Shown piece by piece: positions 5,859 through 22,097 of a DNA stretch of 32,243 nt. The first letter of the stretch is position 1, and each line of letters opens with the position of its first letter. The DNA comes from a virus (Duplodnaviria; Caudoviricetes): positions 1 through 32,243 of IMG/VR virus record IMGVR_UViG_3300016476_000270. One strand, 5' to 3'. The notes below the pieces were generated by a model, which searched no databases, was not told the DNA's origin, and worked only from the letters and a program-made list of their open reading frames with translations. Both the position numbers and the translations under genes were made by a program.

Positions 5859-8414
5859 ATGACTACTTATAAAGGCGTAGAGATCAATACAATTCCTACA
5901 GATGCGATGGCTGAAGAAGCTGATCGTGGTCTGAAGTGGCGTGATGAATTTGGTCGTGGTGGCACAGAAATAGGTGTAGCCAGAGCTAGGGATATTATCA
6001 ATAAAAGAGAATTATCTGCTGATACGATTCGTAGAATGATCAGTTATTTTGCTAGACATAAAGTAGATAAAGAAGCTGAAGGTTTTAGACATGGCGAACA
6101 AGGTTATCCTAGTGCTGGCAGAATTGCATGGGCATTATGGGGTGGTGATGTCGGTAAGACATGGGCAGAATCTAAGGGGAAAACTATGGACAGAATAGAC
6201 GAAGAATCTCGTTCTTATGACGAAAGACCTTATCCGAATGAACACGCAGCCAGATTAAAAGATCCTAGCCAATATGATTCTTTTGCCAGAAAGAATAACG
6301 AAGGTGGTGATGGAATCGACTTTATTTATGGCATTAAAGATGGCGTTTCAGAAATTCAAGCCATCAGATTTGACAAAACAAAATATAGCGTTGATGATGC
6401 TAAAAAGTGGTTAAAAGAACACGATTTTAGCCCTATTGAATTCGAAGAAGCGAGTGAAAGAATGGAACAAAAACGACATATTCAGTCAGTAATGGAAACA
6501 GAGGATTCTGTCATTATTGCCTTCGCTAAAGAAAAAATGGAAGATGAGCACCAAGAGCCACCAGAAGGATCTACTGAGGATGTATCAGAAGATTTAGCTG
6601 AAGGCTATGTAGAAGCTCGTAAAACTCAGGATTTGACTACTCGTGCTGACGATATGATGGCTGAAGCTATCGATGATCGTAGAGTGCGTATGGCTATCAG
6701 CTCTGAAACTCCAGTAGAACGCAGTTTCGGTGCTGAGATCCTAGATCATTCACAAGAATCTATCGATTTGAGTTTCTTGAACTCAGGTCGTGCACCACTC
6801 TTACTGGATCACGATCCAGAAAAGCAGATCGGTGTAATCGAATCCGTAGATCTCGATGGATCAGCTCGAAGATTAAGAGCTGTAGTGCGTTTTGGAAAAG
6901 GCGAACTAGCTAACGAGGTTTATGGTGATGTGACTGATGGTATTCGTGGAAATGTTTCCATTGGGTATCGTGTAGGTCGCATGGAAAAAGCAGATAGCAA
7001 TTCATATCGTGTGAAAAGCTGGATGCCGATGGAAGTTTCTGTAGTGTCTATACCAGCCGATGTGACAGTCGGAGTAGGGCGTTCTGCAACTTCTTCACAA
7101 AATCAATCTTTAAATCAATCAATTTCTGTAAAGGAAAATAAAATGGATCAAAATCTAGAAGCGGTAAAAGATGCTGCTCGTGAAGAAGCTGCAAAAAGTT
7201 TCCAGCGTAACGCATCTGAAATCTTGGCATTGGCAGCTCGTCACAATCAGCGTGATCTAGCTAACAAAGCTATTTCTGAAGGTATGAGCATCGAGCAATT
7301 CCGCGGTGCATTGTTAGAAAAATTGTCTGACAAGCCTATCGAAACTACAGACATCGGTATGAACCAAAAAGAAGTTCGTCAGTATTCATTGATGAACGCT
7401 ATTCGCGGTGCAGCTACTGGTCGTTTATCAGGTTTCGAAGCTGAAGTTAGCCAAGAATTGGCTCGTAAGTATGGTAAAGAAGCTCGTGGTTTCTATGTGC
7501 CTACTGACATTTTCAAGCGTGACATCACTAAGACTTTGCCATCTGGTGCTGGTGGTAGCAATTTAGTAGCTACTGACTTGTTAGGCGGTGACTTTATCGA
7601 TGCACTTCGTGCTAAGTTAGTTATCTCTAGCCTTGGTGCTCGCATGATGTCAGGTCTTAAGGGTAATGTGGCAATTCCAGCATTGAACGCTAAGACTTCT
7701 GTAGGTTTCGTGGCTGAAAACGCTGCACCAGCTTCTGAAGGTGCACCATCTTTCCGTCAGGTTACTATGTCACCTAAGAGCCTTGTGCAATATGTTGATA
7801 TTGGTCGCACATTGATGTATCAATCAGATCCTTCTGTAGAAGCTGTGATTCGTGATGACATGATGCGTCAGTTTGCTGCTAAGATTGACGAAGTAGCAAT
7901 CGAAGGCGGTGGCACATCTGAGCCTACAGGTATCTTGGGCACATCAGGCATCGGCTCTGTAGCTGGTGGCACGAATGGTGCACAGATCACTTACTCTAAC
8001 TTGGTAGCATTGGAACGCGAAGTAGCTATCGATAACGCATTAGCTGGTAACTTGGCTTTCTTAACGAATCCTAAAGTAATCGCTAAGATGCGTTCTACAG
8101 CTCGTCAATCATCTGGTGTAGAAGGTAACTTCATCCTTAACGACAGCAATACTTTGTTGGGTTATCGTGTTGAATCTACTACATTAGTTCCATCTGATTT
8201 GACTAAAGGCACAGCATCAGGCACTTGCTCTGCTGTGATCTTCGGTAACTTCAGCGAATTGATGATCGGTATGTTCGGTGGTTTAGACATCTTGGTAGAT
8301 CCATACACAGGTTCTGCTACTGGTGCAACTCGTATCGCTATGTATCAAGATGTTGATGTGGCGGTTCGTCACGCTGAATCTTTCGCAGCGATTAAAGATG
8401 TATTGACTACCTAA
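5859..8414 (+). CDS. Fusion: two N-terminal unknown domains + HK97-type prohead protease + HK97-fold major capsid protein
   Basis: Protease motifs SSETPVER, PLLLDHD, VSIGYRV, EVSVVSIPAD; capsid motifs FVAENAA, EPTGIL, IFGNFS, ILVDPYT, DVAVRHAESF. Confidence 0.93.
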   Translation: MTTYKGVEINTIPTDAMAEEADRGLKWRDEFGRGGTEIGVARARDIINKRELSADTIRRMISYFARHKVDKEAEGFRHGEQGYPSAGRIAWALWGGDVGKTWAESKGKTMDRIDEESRSYDERPYPNEHAARLKDPSQYDSFARKNNEGGDGIDFIYGIKDGVSEIQAIRFDKTKYSVDDAKKWLKEHDFSPIEFEEASERMEQKRHIQSVMETEDSVIIAFAKEKMEDEHQEPPEGSTEDVSEDLAEGYVEARKTQDLTTRADDMMAEAIDDRRVRMAISSETPVERSFGAEILDHSQESIDLSFLNSGRAPLLLDHDPEKQIGVIESVDLDGSARRLRAVVRFGKGELANEVYGDVTDGIRGNVSIGYRVGRMEKADSNSYRVKSWMPMEVSVVSIPADVTVGVGRSATSSQNQSLNQSISVKENKMDQNLEAVKDAAREEAAKSFQRNASEILALAARHNQRDLANKAISEGMSIEQFRGALLEKLSDKPIETTDIGMNQKEVRQYSLMNAIRGAATGRLSGFEAEVSQELARKYGKEARGFYVPTDIFKRDITKTLPSGAGGSNLVATDLLGGDFIDALRAKLVISSLGARMMSGLKGNVAIPALNAKTSVGFVAENAAPASEGAPSFRQVTMSPKSLVQYVDIGRTLMYQSDPSVEAVIRDDMMRQFAAKIDEVAIEGGGTSEPTGILGTSGIGSVAGGTNGAQITYSNLVALEREVAIDNALAGNLAFLTNPKVIAKMRSTARQSSGVEGNFILNDSNTLLGYRVESTTLVPSDLTKGTASGTCSAVIFGNFSELMIGMFGGLDILVDPYTGSATGATRIAMYQDVDVAVRHAESFAAIKDVLTT
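7143..8414 (+). CDS. Major capsid protein from nested in-frame start (MDQNLEAVK...)
   Basis: AT-rich leader and AAGGA SD (7131-7135) before an in-frame ATG at 7143, right after the protease domain. Confidence 0.7.
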   Translation: MDQNLEAVKDAAREEAAKSFQRNASEILALAARHNQRDLANKAISEGMSIEQFRGALLEKLSDKPIETTDIGMNQKEVRQYSLMNAIRGAATGRLSGFEAEVSQELARKYGKEARGFYVPTDIFKRDITKTLPSGAGGSNLVATDLLGGDFIDALRAKLVISSLGARMMSGLKGNVAIPALNAKTSVGFVAENAAPASEGAPSFRQVTMSPKSLVQYVDIGRTLMYQSDPSVEAVIRDDMMRQFAAKIDEVAIEGGGTSEPTGILGTSGIGSVAGGTNGAQITYSNLVALEREVAIDNALAGNLAFLTNPKVIAKMRSTARQSSGVEGNFILNDSNTLLGYRVESTTLVPSDLTKGTASGTCSAVIFGNFSELMIGMFGGLDILVDPYTGSATGATRIAMYQDVDVAVRHAESFAAIKDVLTT

Positions 8415-8458: not shown

Positions 8459-8986
8459 GTGATTAGACTAGAACAATATAAAGATTGGGGGATTGGCAAA
8501 ACCATTGGGATTCTCGGTGGTGGCGTTAATCTCCCTTCTGATTTAAGGAAGATGCCAGATGTCAATGTGCTGATGGGTATAAATCAGCATACTTTGATTC
8601 TAGATCTAGACTTCATTGTTTTTCTAGATAAAGAGATGGCAGAATATGTCATAGATCATCCAGCTAAGAAGATTTCTCATCATAATAATTGGGAAGGTAG
8701 ATCTGATTTTGTGCATAGCGGTATAGCACCATCTTTCGGATTTTCTGGTGCATTAGGGATCTGGATAGCTGACTATATGAACTTTGATCATGTGTATGTT
8801 TGTGGAATAGATCAGTATGAGAATCGAGAAGATGGTCGAGAATACTGGTGGCAAGCTAAGAAAAGCGAGCCTACGCATCATCATTGTTCTGGTAATAATA
8901 AAAGATGGATCGAAATTAGGGATAATCTAAAAAGACCTAATAGAATTAAGTTTATGTCAGGAAAACTGAAGGAGTTATGGAAATGA
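8459..8986 (+). CDS. Maf/MptE (DUF115)-like or GT42-like nucleotide-sugar transferase-fold protein
   Basis: ILGGGVNL, MGINQH, FIVFLD, FSGALGIWIADYMNFDHVYVCGIDQY match the IxGxGPS / SxxxxAxxxGxxxIYLxGxD pattern of this superfamily. Confidence 0.65.
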   Translation: MIRLEQYKDWGIGKTIGILGGGVNLPSDLRKMPDVNVLMGINQHTLILDLDFIVFLDKEMAEYVIDHPAKKISHHNNWEGRSDFVHSGIAPSFGFSGALGIWIADYMNFDHVYVCGIDQYENREDGREYWWQAKKSEPTHHHCSGNNKRWIEIRDNLKRPNRIKFMSGKLKELWK

Positions 8987-9204
8987 AAGTAAAGCTAACT
9001 CGTGGCATTTTGCATGAAAAAGAGCATTATGATGCTGGTCAAGTTCTAGAGCTATCTAATATTGAAGCTCAAAAATTGATGGGTATGGGCAAGGCTGTGC
9101 CTTATGTTGATGAGCCAGTAATAGAAAATCGTGCTGTAGCTCTAGAATCAAGCGAAGAACCAGTATTACAAAAACGCACTTATAAGAAGAAGGTAGCCGA
9201 ATAA
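8983..9204 (+). CDS. Small head accessory protein (gpFI-position)
   Basis: AAGGAG SD, ATGA overlap with the upstream stop; YDAGQVLELSNIEAQKLMGMGKA motif typical of small post-capsid proteins; basic tail. Confidence 0.6.
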   Translation: MKVKLTRGILHEKEHYDAGQVLELSNIEAQKLMGMGKAVPYVDEPVIENRAVALESSEEPVLQKRTYKKKVAE

Positions 9205-18089: not shown

Positions 18090-18317
18090 ATGAGTGCTGA
18101 GATCGATCCAGTTAAATATGGCGTTCTGTGGGAACGAGTTCAAGGCTACGAAAAAAAGTTCGAGAGCATGGAAAAAAAGATGGATAAGATGGAAAATCAG
18201 CTCGAACAATTAGTAGCTTTGGCTAATCAAGGTCGTGGCGGCTTTTGGGCTGGCATGGCTTTAGTTTCTGCGATCAGCTCAGTTATTGGATATTTCAGCC
18301 ATTGGTGGGGTAAGTAA
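18090..18317 (+). CDS. Coiled-coil protein with C-terminal TM helix (XhlA/holin-like)
   Basis: Heptad region then ANQGRGG and hydrophobic FWAGMALVSAISSVIGYF. Confidence 0.6.
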   Translation: MSAEIDPVKYGVLWERVQGYEKKFESMEKKMDKMENQLEQLVALANQGRGGFWAGMALVSAISSVIGYFSHWWGK

Positions 18318-18772
18318 TGAGAGAGATATTAGCGATCTGGGCGTGTTTAATTGCTTTTATGTTCGCTAGTAGCTCTGCGAAAGCACAGCCTATAGTTACA
18401 GAATCTACATCTAAAGCTGAAACTACTGTTAAATCACCACCACCATCAGCGATTAGCCCTAGCATCACATCAATCAATAATTTTATGTGCTCTAGTGGTG
18501 TAGGCGGTGCAGTTCAAACTCAGATTTTCGGTATCTCTATGGGTTCTACGATTACCGATAAGAACTGCGAATTAGTCATTTTGGCTAATGCTTTATCAGC
18601 TCAAAGAATGACAGGCGTAGCTACTACGCTACTCTGTCAAGATGCTAGAGTGTGGTATTCAATGTGGGATAGTGGCGTAATCTGCCCTATAAATGGCAAA
18701 ATCGGATCAGAAGCTAAACTCATCTGGGAACAAAATCCACAATGGATGCCAGATAGACCTAAGATCAGATGA
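18317..18772 (+). CDS. Secreted Cys-containing protein of unknown function
   Basis: Signal peptide ending AKA/Q; PPPSAISP; four Cys in the mature part. Confidence 0.7.
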   Translation: MREILAIWACLIAFMFASSSAKAQPIVTESTSKAETTVKSPPPSAISPSITSINNFMCSSGVGGAVQTQIFGISMGSTITDKNCELVILANALSAQRMTGVATTLLCQDARVWYSMWDSGVICPINGKIGSEAKLIWEQNPQWMPDRPKIR

Positions 18773-20241
18773 AGTGGATAATTGCCTTACTAGCCACTAT
18801 TAGCTTGGCACAGGCACAAGTAATACAGCACAATATTTCAGACGATGGCTATGCTCATGTGCCATTACAGTTTCCATTTCCTTACTATGGTCGTATCTTT
18901 ACTGATAGCTTTATGTATAGTAATGGCGTAGTAGGATTTGGATCAATAAATAATCATTGGTGCTGCTCTGGATACGATCTAAGATTTAGCCAAGGATATC
19001 AGTTTAATTACTCGATCATGGCTCTACAGACTGATTTAATCAATTATGGATCAGGTCGATTCTTAACTGAAGGCACTCCACAATATCAGAGATATACATG
19101 GGAAAATATCTCAGAATTCGGCAGACCTAATAATTTGAATACTTTTGGCGTAGAGATCAGACCAGATGGATTCATAGGTATGTATTACAATAAAGTGCAC
19201 CTAGATCGACCATTTACTATCGGTATGACAGGTGACACTACGCTAGGTGAATATACTCAGCATAGATACCAGAATGGATTACATACAGATGAGCCATTTA
19301 ACTATCTAGCGAATGGAACTGGCAATATTTGTGTGACTAATCCACTAGCCAGCCCATCATGCCCTAATTATCAAGAAGCCTATGATCTGCAACAATGCTC
19401 TCTAAATCCACTCTATAGACCATCTTGTATAGGTTATGAGCAAGCCTATTTAGATCAACAATGTAGCCTAAATACACTTTATAGCTCTCAATGTAGCGGA
19501 TACCAGCAAGCGTATCATGATCAACAATGCTCGCTAAATGCCTTATATGCGACTACTTGCATAGGTTATGAAGCAGCTTATTTTAATAATCAATGTCGTA
19601 TAAATCCGTTATATAACTCTGGCTGCCAAGGTTATGCACAGGCTTATTTTAATTACCAATGCTCTCAGAATCCGCTATATGACAGAAATTGCACAGGATA
19701 TGCCGAAGCATATGCTTTAGCTAATGTCGTGCCAGCTACGAGCACTAATACAGTATCTACATCTACCCCTAGCGTTCAAGTAAGCACTACAGGCACAGTA
19801 ACTATGGAAACTCCAGTAGTCGCTGATCCAGTAGTCAATGAAGTGATCACTAGACCAGTTCAAACTTCTACATCAGCTGCACAATCTAGCCAGCCACCTA
19901 GTCAGGTAACTACTCAGACGATCACTCAGGCAGCTCAAACTGAAAAAAAAGAGAGCAAAAAAGAGGATAAGAAAGAAGAAAAACGAGAAGAAAAGCGAGA
20001 ATCTAAGCAAGTAGCCAGAGATATAAAAGTAGATTCTACAAAGAACGAAGTAGGTCAGATTAAATCTGTAGAGATCAGAACTGTAGAACTTCCTAAAGGT
20101 GTAGAAATTATCGATTATTCATTCATGCGAATAATTGCCAATATGAAAACAATCCAAGAAAATCGTAATTCAGCACGAATGATGCAGCATAGTGATCGTA
20201 TTCATAGGAGTTTAGTAGATGAACAATGGCGAAGAGATTAA
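18769..20241 (+). CDS. Secreted protein: nidogen(NIDO)-like domain, six Cys repeats, S/T linker, charged tail
   Basis: Signal peptide ending AQA/Q; DDGYAHVPLQFPFPYYG...SNGVVGF; CxxNPLYxxxCxGYxxAY repeats. Confidence 0.7.
   Translation: MKWIIALLATISLAQAQVIQHNISDDGYAHVPLQFPFPYYGRIFTDSFMYSNGVVGFGSINNHWCCSGYDLRFSQGYQFNYSIMALQTDLINYGSGRFLTEGTPQYQRYTWENISEFGRPNNLNTFGVEIRPDGFIGMYYNKVHLDRPFTIGMTGDTTLGEYTQHRYQNGLHTDEPFNYLANGTGNICVTNPLASPSCPNYQEAYDLQQCSLNPLYRPSCIGYEQAYLDQQCSLNTLYSSQCSGYQQAYHDQQCSLNALYATTCIGYEAAYFNNQCRINPLYNSGCQGYAQAYFNYQCSQNPLYDRNCTGYAEAYALANVVPATSTNTVSTSTPSVQVSTTGTVTMETPVVADPVVNEVITRPVQTSTSAAQSSQPPSQVTTQTITQAAQTEKKESKKEDKKEEKREEKRESKQVARDIKVDSTKNEVGQIKSVEIRTVELPKGVEIIDYSFMRIIANMKTIQENRNSARMMQHSDRIHRSLVDEQWRRD
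19330..19725 (+). repeat. Six degenerate 66-bp (22-aa) tandem repeats
   Basis: CVTNPLASPSCPNYQEAYDLQQ / CSLNPLYRPSCIGYEQAYLDQQ / CSLNTLYSSQCSGYQQAYHDQQ / CSLNALYATTCIGYEAAYFNNQ / CRINPLYNSGCQGYAQAYFNYQ / CSQNPLYDRNCTGYAEAYALAN. Confidence 0.95.
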
Positions 20242-20707
20242 GGATGTCAATAAAGGCATCGATAAAATAGAAGAAGCAGTCAAGAAGTATGCTGGTAAAG
20301 ATACTGTTATTAGCATTGGTGGCTATGAGTTCACTCCAGCTAAATTGATGGTCTTATTCACTATTGTATCTTCTGCTCTTGGTGGTTTATATGGCGTTTT
20401 CGAGGTATATAAATCTTATCAATCCATGCAAAAAAAGATAAACGAATATGTCACTCCAGATCTATCAGAATTCGATAAGCGTTTAATTCTTGTAGAAGAA
20501 ACATCGACTAAGACTAACGACTACACCAGAGATATTAAAAATGACATCAAGAACGATATTCGTAAGCTAGAAAAGGTAGTCGAGCAAGTCGAGAGAGATA
20601 CTAAACAAGCTCGTAGAGAAACTGATCAAGAACTAAGACAGATTCGTAAAGATGTAGATCAAAAACTTAAAGAAGCTATGGATAATCCAATTTTAGGGGG
20701 TAAGTAA
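20219..20707 (+). CDS. Single-TM protein with long C-terminal coiled coil
   Basis: TM LMVLFTIVSSALGGLYGVF followed by a charged heptad-rich region ending DNPIL. Confidence 0.7.
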   Translation: MNNGEEIKDVNKGIDKIEEAVKKYAGKDTVISIGGYEFTPAKLMVLFTIVSSALGGLYGVFEVYKSYQSMQKKINEYVTPDLSEFDKRLILVEETSTKTNDYTRDIKNDIKNDIRKLEKVVEQVERDTKQARRETDQELRQIRKDVDQKLKEAMDNPILGGK

Positions 20708-20964
20708 TGAGTAGAATGTCATCAGAAGAAATCGAGATTCGTATCTGGGCGTTTATCGTAGTAATTCTATCTACCATGTTATTCGTGATAGCTTTAGGTG
20801 TTCTATGGGCTGTAGCTTTTGAAGAACAGAAGATGGAATTAGCACCTATTGACAGCATTTTCTTAGAGATCCTAAAAGCTGTGGCTTATATGTCAATCGG
20901 CACATTAGGTGGCATCGCTGGTCGTAAGATTGGTAAAGAGAAAGATGATGAGGTGAAAGAATGA
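20707..20964 (+). CDS. Small two-TM membrane protein (holin/antiholin candidate)
   Basis: Two hydrophobic segments, charged C-terminus; adjacent to the holin. Confidence 0.55.
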   Translation: MSRMSSEEIEIRIWAFIVVILSTMLFVIALGVLWAVAFEEQKMELAPIDSIFLEILKAVAYMSIGTLGGIAGRKIGKEKDDEVKE

Positions 20965-21362
20965 TCCCATTAGCAGCCATTATGAGCATCGGTGAAAAGG
21001 TGCTCGATAAAGTATTGCCAGATCCAGAAGCTAAAGCTAAAGCTATGGCAGAACTTACTAAGATCCAGAATGAAGGTAAGTTAGCAGAATTAAACGCTGA
21101 TAACATCGAGAATCAAGAGCTAACTAAGCGATTAGAAGCTGATATGAAGTCAGATTCATGGCTATCTAAGAATATTAGACCTATGACATTAGTATTTATC
21201 TTAGTGGTTTATTCTACTTTTGCGATGATGTCTGCGTGGGATATTGAAGTAAATAACAACTATGTAGAGCTACTTGGTCAATGGGGTATGCTTATTATGA
21301 GTTTTTACTTTGGTGGTCGCACATTAGAGAAAATTATCGATATGAAGGGTAAAAAAGAATGA
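20961..21362 (+). CDS. Holin, 3TM gene-transfer-agent type
   Basis: LDKVLPDPEAK, SDSWLSKNIRP, FYFGGRTLEK motifs. Confidence 0.8.
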   Translation: MIPLAAIMSIGEKVLDKVLPDPEAKAKAMAELTKIQNEGKLAELNADNIENQELTKRLEADMKSDSWLSKNIRPMTLVFILVVYSTFAMMSAWDIEVNNNYVELLGQWGMLIMSFYFGGRTLEKIIDMKGKKE

Positions 21363-21508
21363 CATTAGATCAGAGAAAAGACTATCTATTAAATAAGCAT
21401 TTTTATATTGCTAAATATATGTCTATTCCAGTTAATGTTAGTTTTAAAAGAAAAATCATTAAGAAATTAAAAGGGCTATATGAAAGATATACTTTTAAAA
21501 ATTGTTGA
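21359..21508 (+). CDS. Small basic protein, 49 aa (not in ORF track)
   Basis: ATGA overlap with the holin stop; MTLDQRKDYLLNKHFYIAKYMSIPVNVSFKRKIIKKLKGLYERYTFKNC; fills the holin-lysin gap. Confidence 0.45.
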   Translation: MTLDQRKDYLLNKHFYIAKYMSIPVNVSFKRKIIKKLKGLYERYTFKNC

Positions 21509-22097
21509 TCAGGCTACAGCTGATAAGTGGGCTGATTCTCTACAAGCTACTTGTGACAAGTTCGAGATCAATACACCAGAAAGAATCGCTGGTTTTGTGG
21601 CTCAATGTGCACATGAATCTGGTATGTTTAAAAGCGTATCTGAAGGTCTAAATTACAAGGTAGAAGCTCTAAAAGCTCTATTCGGCAGACATCGCATAAG
21701 TGAAGAAGATTGTAATAAATATGGTCGCATTGATGGAAAGCAGCCAGCAGATCAAGCTGGTATTGCCAATGCTATCTATGGCGGTGAATTCGGCAAAAAG
21801 AATCTAGGCAATACTGAATATGGCGATGGTTATGCTTATCGTGGGCGTGGTCTTATTCAGCTCACAGGTAAGGCTAACTACAAGAAGGCTGGTGATTCTC
21901 TAGGTGTTGATCTAGTCGCGAATCCAGATCTAGTAGCTACTCCAGAATATGCAGCTCTTACAGCTGGCTGGTTCTGGTCTGCTAATAACTTAAATGCTCT
22001 GGCTGATGCTAAAGATCTTCTAGGTATGACTAAGAAGGTCAATGGTGGAACTATTGGCATTGAGCATCGCACAGAGCTGTATAACAAGCTAATCTAA
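21480..22097 (+). CDS. Endolysin, glycoside hydrolase family 19
   Basis: AQCAHESG, LGN...GDGYAYRGRGLIQLTGKANY, AGWFW, TKKVNGG. Confidence 0.93.
   Translation: MKDILLKIVDQATADKWADSLQATCDKFEINTPERIAGFVAQCAHESGMFKSVSEGLNYKVEALKALFGRHRISEEDCNKYGRIDGKQPADQAGIANAIYGGEFGKKNLGNTEYGDGYAYRGRGLIQLTGKANYKKAGDSLGVDLVANPDLVATPEYAALTAGWFWSANNLNALADAKDLLGMTKKVNGGTIGIEHRTELYNKLI

Follow-up and report, generated by a model that had tools for sequence, protein, structure and literature searches.

The described systems closest to the locus reported here are the two-component spanins (Rz/Rz1 of lambda; PseT.3/PseT.2 of T4), which are found in or beside the holin-endolysin cluster, are late and are exchanged among phage types. 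These traits recur in a gene cassette of a tailed phage (Duplodnaviria; Caudoviricetes), the IMG/VR virus record IMGVR_UViG_3300016476_000270, which was analyzed over its whole stretch of 32,243 bases (98% complete according to CheckV), called here the window. The cassette encodes two exported proteins, A and B, a membrane protein, C, and a small two-transmembrane (2-TM) protein. In architecture only, C matches an i-spanin, being a small inner-membrane protein with one transmembrane segment (residues 43-61) and about 100 charged helical residues. Unlike spanins, the cassette has neither an outer-membrane lipoprotein nor an embedded or overlapping Rz1-like gene, and adds exported proteins of 151 and 490 amino acids (aa). 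C differs from Rz in its 40-aa cytoplasmic head, its far stronger conservation and the lack of sequence similarity, and the trio A, B and C often lies far from lysis genes in T4-like genomes.

Other systems resemble the cassette in part. The T4 RI/holin T pair and T4 Sp (spackle) likewise involve small exported periplasmic phage proteins acting on lysis or on incoming phage, although they have no sequence similarity to the cassette and no large stalked protein, and the fold search with A gave no match above Z 3.0; their genes are early, or early and late. TonB and TolA are comparable in joining a membrane anchor to a terminal binding domain through a long spacer, which is helical or rich in Pro, Glu or Lys, whereas in B the order is reversed, with a cleaved signal, the head first and a conserved tail last, and no TonB_C or TolA Pfam match was obtained; one relative of B, in record MW202481, is annotated "transport protein tonB", which rests on low-complexity Pro/Lys sequence. 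Finally, the curli/type VIII secretion system cassette of pelagiphages is, in the portions of the reports available to us, a multigene exported envelope set that the host lacks, carried by podo- and myo-type phages and abundant in aquatic viromes (PMC9599517, PMC7029224). The trio shares all of these traits, but its proteins are different, with an inner-membrane coiled-coil protein in place of a pore component. Curli was rejected as the identity of the trio, as no CsgG, CsgF or CsgA/B Pfam match was found in the cassette or in neighboring open reading frames (ORFs) of related loci.

From its context, we tentatively read the set of A, B, C and the 2-TM protein as a lipoprotein-free, spanin-like periplasmic accessory of the envelope-breaking step of lysis. 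A lysis accessory fits best because the genes are phage-only, exchanged between phage types, apparently late and recurrent next to holins and endolysins, and because they combine an inner-membrane coiled coil with exported partners. In the window the cassette shares one operon with a holin and a GH19 endolysin, a lysis context recurs in separate lineages, and the cassette moves between phage types, as lysis genes do. The wider proposal of a new class of outer-membrane disruption machinery is more doubtful. This would be a lipoprotein-free, three-part assembly spanning the periplasm (C as inner-membrane coiled coil, B as stalked exported protein with a host-specific head, A as four-Cys adaptor) and would take the place of spanins in many aquatic phages, SAR11 phages among them. 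An original prediction, made from the letters of the window, had proposed that these products form one envelope-spanning complex made late in infection; their exported or membrane nature, their restriction to phages and their late or lysis contexts were upheld, whereas the single complex and the three roles offered for it (outer-membrane disruption, superinfection or lysis-timing sensor, adhesin) stay putative.

Organization of the Cassette

ORFs for the four coupled genes were found exactly where they had been placed (18317..20964), all on the + strand, and overlap by 4 (A/B), 23 (B/C) and 1 (C/85-aa gene) nucleotides (nt). Upstream, A overlaps the gene for a 75-aa protein by 1 nt and, downstream, the 85-aa gene overlaps the holin gene by 4 nt. 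Altogether, eight genes (75-aa protein, A, B, C, 2-TM protein, holin, a 49-aa ORF and endolysin) run through positions 18090-22097 with start-to-stop overlaps of 1-29 nt, and no terminator-like site was found within the block (Table 1). The unbroken overlaps and the lack of an internal terminator-like site indicated that the cassette belongs to the lysis operon in this phage. In a heuristic lipobox scan of the six frames of the window, the only two ORFs flagged were implausible and distant from the lysis region, leaving no candidate for an o- or u-spanin.

TABLE 1. Genes of the overlapping chain and segments of protein B in the window.
Feature	Position	Strand	Basis and remarks
75-aa protein	18090..18317	+	ORF; coiled coil and C-terminal hydrophobic span; opens the overlapping chain
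A, 151 aa, exported	18317..18772	+	ORF; signal peptide 1-23; phrog_20531, E 7e-11
B, 490 aa, exported	18769..20241	+	ORF
C, 162 aa, membrane	20219..20707	+	ORF; phrog_18138, E 7.1e-6
85-aa two-pass membrane protein	20707..20964	+	ORF; phrog_25359, E 8.3e-6
Holin, three-transmembrane, gene transfer agent (GTA) type	20961..21362	+	PF11351, E 8.4e-9; phrog_3427, E 9.2e-24
GH19-type endolysin, last gene of the chain	21480..22097	+	PF00182, E 8.6e-13; phrog_181, E 4.8e-71
B, signal peptide	18769..18816	+	Residues 1-16, AQA before Q; AlphaFold2 (AF2) helix 2-12
B, beta-sandwich head	18817..19326	+	Residues 17-186; AF2 predicted local distance difference test (pLDDT) >90
B, six 22-aa two-Cys repeats, helix-turn stack	19327..19728	+	Residues 187-320; pLDDT >90; helices 201-212 to 311-320
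B, disordered linker	19729..20115	+	Residues 321-449 (~130); AF2 pLDDT <50 for 322-456
B, conserved helical tail (two helices)	20116..20241	+	Residues 450-490; ends ...H.SLVDEQWRRD

Matches were accepted at E ≤ 0.1 for Pfam and E ≤ 0.01 for PHROG. Neither A, B, C nor the 85-aa protein matched a Pfam family, and their PHROG matches were only to families without assigned function, phrog_25359 of the 85-aa protein among them. This last protein has a strong hydrophobic span at residues 15-33 and, by eye, a second, weaker G/A-rich span conserved in relatives; its likeness to a class II holin or antiholin is putative and concerns the build, and no holin family was matched. The adjoining gene had been called a holin, which its Pfam and PHROG matches backed. 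The 75-aa gene had been described as XhlA-like: it gave no match to Pfam XhlA (PF10779), and the resemblance comes down to a coiled coil with a C-terminal hydrophobic stretch. No relative of it was found among the 50 loci searched, and it is not conserved with the trio; in MW202481, a protein of similar build precedes A.

Distribution and Co-occurrence

The set recurs in thousands of aquatic phages. Both exported families are large, with 2,106 relatives of B (E ≤ 0.001) among 8,000 candidates scored and 3,893 relatives of A (E ≤ 1e-5), the latter family forming 1,889 clusters at 50% identity (E ≤ 0.001). Apart from the MW202481 relative of B, source records give relatives of the trio no name but "hypothetical protein." All 30 Atlas neighbors of C were viral, and its profile, run over 185,579 prokaryote species with a single genome per species, hit seven contigs, all from metagenome-assembled genomes (MAGs) of scattered taxa (Bacteriovoracaceae, Bathyarchaeia, Aquiluna, Bacteroidia and others), with phage genes around the hits in those scanned. 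The viral neighbors and the mere seven MAG contigs indicated that the family is phage-only as far as the data go; with so few and scattered contigs, prophages yielded no host assignment.

Cultured carriers of A comprise six Pelagibacter phages (HTVC033P, HTVC115P, HTVC023P, HTVC202P, Baldr, and Mosig), and further matches came from a spring-water podovirus record, a Mediterranean fosmid phage and, weakly, Ralstonia phage RSP15. Among cultured phages C was matched in HTVC115P only, and B gave no tblastn match in 50,697 phage records. The trio is present in sipho-like (the window), podo-like and T4-like genomes.

Gene order was strongly kept. In the 35 IMG/VR loci found via B, many of them near-duplicates (22 distinct B sequences), A stood directly 5' of B in all 32 with upstream DNA and C stood 3' of B in all 31 whose contig extends far enough. 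Loci found via C agreed: L041 and L046 carry A-B-C, and L043 carries A, a short B missed by tblastn, three more exported proteins and then C. The original prediction that the genes travel together was thus right for A, B, and C wherever the contig allows, whereas the 2-TM gene follows in a subset only, a relative being found after C in 7 of 31 ORF sets (phmmer) plus L042. Extra small exported or membrane genes are often inserted in the cassette, including some for DUF4337 proteins. DUF4337 membrane proteins adjoin C at L002:8486-9040, L047:3609-4157 and, by eye, L003:8487-9041, and may be a further accessory of the same module.

The Pelagibacter phages follow a common plan, consisting of a relative of A, a signal-peptide protein of 430-610 aa in which a carbohydrate-binding module (CBM)-like head precedes a linker, first acidic and further on basic, and a helical tail, and a C-like protein of 107-132 aa with an N-terminal span, a coil often bearing a His-rich insert and a C-terminal NPL(A/G). 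By BLASTP, B had no significant match (E ≥ 1.1) with the large proteins at the matching position in HTVC115P and HTVC033P, which are linked to it only by position and build and, in HTVC115P, also by the tail motif. The short C-type proteins at L039:7987-8346, L038:7029-7352, and L048:7725-8066 (HTVC023P, HTVC033P, and HTVC202P, respectively) contain His-rich coil inserts, for example HSHDMPKHSHEVGEHQHDEHGH, which suggests putative metal binding. In the portions available of the pelagiphage literature on curli, signal peptides and lysis, spanins and virion mass spectrometry (including PMC9599517, PMC9004378, and PMC7029224) these genes are not described, although supplements may list them as hypothetical; no pelagiphage virion proteome was found in that literature.

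Features of the Exported Proteins A and B

The signal peptide and four Cys attributed to A were recovered by hand inspection, as MRE, a hydrophobic core and AKA before Q, with Cys 58, 84, 107, and 123 in the mature part; one further Cys lies inside the signal peptide, the build of which is kept throughout the A alignment. A highly conserved stretch is residues 24-55 (window 18386-18480), where the mature start (Q/D)PIVT(E/D)STS and the element SPPP.A..P are invariant or nearly so in 43 sequences. In the window protein this reads QPIVTESTS...SPPPSAISP, with disorder predicted there by AF2, and it looks like a short linear binding motif, a putative assignment. Mimicry of a TonB box, to which the peptide bears a putative likeness, was considered and set aside. 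A mostly helical four-Cys domain follows (residues ~55-145; AF2 pLDDT 78-91 for 80-140). No match above Z 3.0 was obtained for the A model against the PDB with VIA-align, and its profile matched no PDB sequence. Some relatives, such as L037:3299-3898 (gp54 of HTVC115P) and L043:5315-5899, have a hydrophobic C-terminal span; they would be tail-anchored after signal cleavage, with the Cys domain in the periplasm. Pfam searches of 20 long family members gave no informative fusion, the one to YebC looking like a gene-call artefact.

As had been predicted, B begins with a signal peptide (MK, hydrophobic core, AQA before Q, judged by hand), an N-terminal build kept in 20 of 20 full-length relatives, and continues with Cys repeats, a Ser/Thr stalk and a charged tail. 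Twelve of its 14 Cys fall in the six 22-aa repeats, residues 321-392 are T/S/V-rich and 393-425 K/E-rich, and a helical tail closes the protein. Repeat copies vary from 3 to 11 in relatives, whereas the tail motif LFG.TD.LH.EMV..QY is kept in the 23 listed relatives, and a motif of the window type also ends gp53 of HTVC115P. Heads are swappable, with two homology groups among 21 relatives and the CBM-like head of the Pelagibacter phages as a third. The head of the window protein is weakly like the beta-supersandwich domains of sugar phosphorylases and polysaccharide lyases and the periplasmic domain of YidC, at Z values (5.0-5.9; root-mean-square deviation ~4 Å over ~135 aligned residues) below the trust level of the tool. 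Foldseek gave no PDB match for the B model at E ≤ 0.001, the B profile found only low-complexity matches among PDB sequences (E ≥ 0.14), and BFVD returned only uncharacterized phage proteins. The NIDO-like domain formerly assigned to B was not confirmed, as Pfam NIDO (PF06119) was matched neither in the window protein nor in any of 100 family members; a lead towards NIDO is left by a language-model neighborhood, in which 21 of the 30 nearest named Atlas clusters carry it (score 0.90), with 149-161 shared features vs. 170 typical of true members.

Protein C and Its Link with B

C agreed with its earlier description as a transmembrane and coiled-coil protein, having about 40 cytoplasmic residues, a hydrophobic span (43-61) and then a charged helical region. 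Identity across 19 relatives was 53-72%, with coil insertions of 7 to ~47 residues, an invariant FTPAK...LGGLYG span, the motif APDLSE and an invariant C-terminal DNP(L/I). As for A and B, neither a relative of solved structure nor a clear fold match came up for C. In two loci a single cassette carries tandem C paralogues (L005:7930-8526 and 8537-9016; L013:6906-7502 and 7513-7992), of 198 and 159 aa, that differ in coil length.

The type of B tail varied together with the type of C. Tails of type H..LVD.QY pair with a window-type C in the window, in all IMG/VR loci whose contig reaches C and in HTVC115P, where the large protein ends in H.ELVD.QYR; the short C type pairs with a different B tail in HTVC033P, HTVC023P, HTVC202P, and Mosig. 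B length also rose with C coil length (Spearman 0.63, n = 23, uncorrected for kinship). The co-variation of B tail and C is the best hint that the two work together. Complex prediction with C (60-162) and the B tail (420-490) scored 0.00 vs. a mark of 0.32 and was counted neither for nor against.

A 133-aa ORF of locus L047 (2881-3282, +) joins a signal peptide and an A-type N-terminal peptide, SDPIVTQSTS, to a C-type coil ending in IDNPLAGK. It lies two genes downstream of a homologue of the window endolysin and is followed by a 2-TM relative and a DUF4337 protein. Be it a functional fusion or what a deletion left behind, this ORF links A and C to a single ancestral cassette next to the endolysin, and in it the A peptide behaves as a separable module; its C-type coil, standing behind an export signal, is thereby placed in the periplasm. 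The same locus has a small ORF with a canonical-looking lipobox (…LALTAC…) just 5' of the endolysin homologue (L047:1533-1841 and L047:1856-2473). A lipobox scan of the related loci, considered as a measure of anti-correlation with spanins, found nothing beside the cassette, but its rule was too strict, missing this L047 candidate, and it was not used.

Genomic Context and Timing

The cassette had been described as embedded in the lysis region. This applies to the window and to several small phages, whereas T4-like genomes have it amid genes of replication and metabolism and two Pelagibacter phages just before the terminase gene. An M15 peptidase gene comes right after C in HTVC023P; a lysozyme gene, three small genes and then the trio follow one another in HTVC033P; and MW202481 has the trio, a holin-like gene and a lysozyme gene in this order. 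Endolysin homologues (~40% identity) adjoin the cassette in L046 and L047, that of L046 being 41% identical to the endolysin of the window and two genes after C. A Peptidase_S11 gene is two genes after C in L019, and the GH19 endolysin of L003 is 3 kb off on the opposite strand. In HTVC202P and Baldr the trio is directly 5' of the terminase large subunit gene; lambda keeps its lysis genes just before this gene. Overall, most small genomes have the cassette inside or bordering a lysis cluster, and large ones do not.

In T4-like settings, the motif TATAAATA, which we take to be the T4-type late promoter, was present in the 200 nt preceding A for 9 of the 24 distinct upstream regions; the expected number of matches to its 7-base core, ATAAATA, is 0.033 per 200 nt. 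This motif in T4-like carriers and the lysis or late positions elsewhere led us to predict that the cassette is late everywhere. A metallophosphoesterase and glycosyltransferase gene pair lies within a few kb of the cassette at L003:10013-11602, L004:1715-3461, and L016:8883-10805.

Layout of the Virus Record

By PHROG matches, the window has a lambda-like siphovirus gene order, with head genes for small and large terminase, portal and a fused protease-capsid, and tail genes for tail tube, tape measure, distal tail protein, a J-like 959-aa tail protein and a 353-aa fiber. The cassette, the holin, the GH19 endolysin and a leftward early region follow 3' of the fiber gene. The nearest cultured capsids are those of ~30-kb Roseobacter phages (41-46% identity) and Synechococcus S-CBS1/3, and DNA near-identical to the window came mostly from freshwater metagenomes (12 studies), no RNA data set being listed among the carriers. 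The major capsid gene (5859-8414) encodes an 851-aa fusion, whose N-terminal part matches phrog_2859 and phrog_4523 ("major head and protease"), followed by the capsid domain; such a fusion is common to the ~30-kb Roseobacter CRP phages and S-CBS1/3.

Discussion

For the topology, complex formation and function of A, B, and C we infer the following arrangement. C would be held in the inner membrane, its long helix extending into the periplasm, and the conserved tail of B may dock on it, so that the B stalk and the variable, sugar-binding-like head could reach the wall or the outer membrane. The invariant N-terminal peptide of A, which is the best-conserved member, would serve to bind a conserved partner. 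After the wall is cut by the endolysin, the assembly might aid in outer-membrane disruption or in release of the envelope. A wide SAR11 periplasm was considered as a reason for such long parts, and no measurement of it was found in the portions of the literature available.

Several observations weigh against a lysis accessory. None of the four proteins matched a spanin, a holin accessory or any other lysis family in Pfam or PHROG, and an outer-membrane anchor is missing, since the signal peptides of A and B both end in AxA signal-peptidase I sites and lack a lipobox. At 53-72% identity, C is unusually conserved, whereas known spanins diverge fast. The variable, sugar-binding-like head of B fits a ligand at the cell surface better than one in the periplasm. 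As regards context, an endolysin lay within 6 kb in only one of eight scanned loci, and in most T4-like loci the trio stands among genes for T4-type DNA polymerase, UvsX, DnaB, ribonucleotide reductase and metabolic enzymes with no wall enzyme near; neighbors in the seven lysin-free loci also include ferredoxin, NifU and glycosyltransferases, and the polymerase of L017 is 50% identical to those of cyanomyoviruses. The M15 peptidase of HTVC202P is ~10 kb from the trio, and HTVC115P has no annotated lysin near it. The Roseobacter CRP phages, the nearest cultured structural relatives, gave no match to A, B or C, CRP-811 having lysins alone at that position.

The position of the cassette directly 5' of the holin gene, which it overlaps, would also suit a device for lysis timing or inhibition, in which the exported proteins sense the state of the wall or a superinfecting phage in the periplasm and, in the manner of T4 RI with holin T, relay the signal to the holin by way of C and the 2-TM protein. 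The union of exported and membrane parts in one operon, the late-promoter motif of T4-like carriers and the holin- or antiholin-like build of the 2-TM protein, which recurs after C, are consistent with it. We consider it unlikely, as no similarity to RI, RIII or any antiholin was found with Pfam or PHROG, the adjoining holins differ in type or are absent, the 2-TM protein is absent from most loci, and, for a sensor, a stalked protein of 490-830 aa whose head can be exchanged is large.

Superinfection exclusion or receptor masking, with exported proteins altering or covering the envelope so as to block further injection or the loss of progeny on debris, is improbable to a similar degree. The late-promoter motif and the late-operon position would be poor timing for it, no route to the cell surface is encoded, and known exclusion genes are small, lineage-specific and less widespread, even though the location in the periplasm or envelope, the occurrence of the trio in unrelated phages of one host group, Pelagibacter, and the glycosyltransferase and phosphoesterase genes near the cassette in L003, L004, and L016 are all compatible with exclusion, and the variable B head would suit strain-variable surface glycans.

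There is a slimmer chance that the cassette makes an adhesin or aggregation factor for the host cell, which would be released or put on display as infection ends, for a purpose comparable to that of pelagiphage curli. Curli offer a precedent, being a multigene envelope cassette that has moved between pelagiphages of podo- and myo-type (PMC9599517), and B, with its head, disulfide-stapled stalk of 3-11 repeat units and long linker, is built accordingly; however, the cassette encodes neither a secretion channel nor an outer-membrane component, Pfam gave no match to CsgG/CsgF or any other secretion-system family, and a conserved inner-membrane partner is unexpected for a released adhesin. Virion or assembly proteins whose N-terminal hydrophobic segments are no export signals are very improbable, for although the cassette comes right after the tail-fiber genes in the window and appears late, the corresponding position in CRP-811 holds a 796-aa "virion structural protein" and the conserved anchor and variable head of B recall receptor-binding proteins, signal peptides of n-h-c build with AxA sites are kept across both families, the Cys-rich domains would probably need an oxidizing compartment, the trio occurs in sipho-, podo- and myo-type genomes alike, and no PHROG structural annotation was obtained.

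A spanin-like accessory of lysis, our preferred reading, bears on the problem of how phages of the most abundant aquatic bacteria pass the outer membrane, and the A family is among the larger phage protein families without a name. Retention of the trio even in genomes of only 32 kb, ~8% of whose DNA it occupies, and its movement between phage types point to a general and strongly selected function. If exclusion or adhesion were true, the cassette would bear on the dealings of infected SAR11-type cells with other phages and cells. If envelope disruption is true, it would be a new kind of lysis component, filling in part the gap left by phages of Gram-negative hosts without a recognizable spanin.

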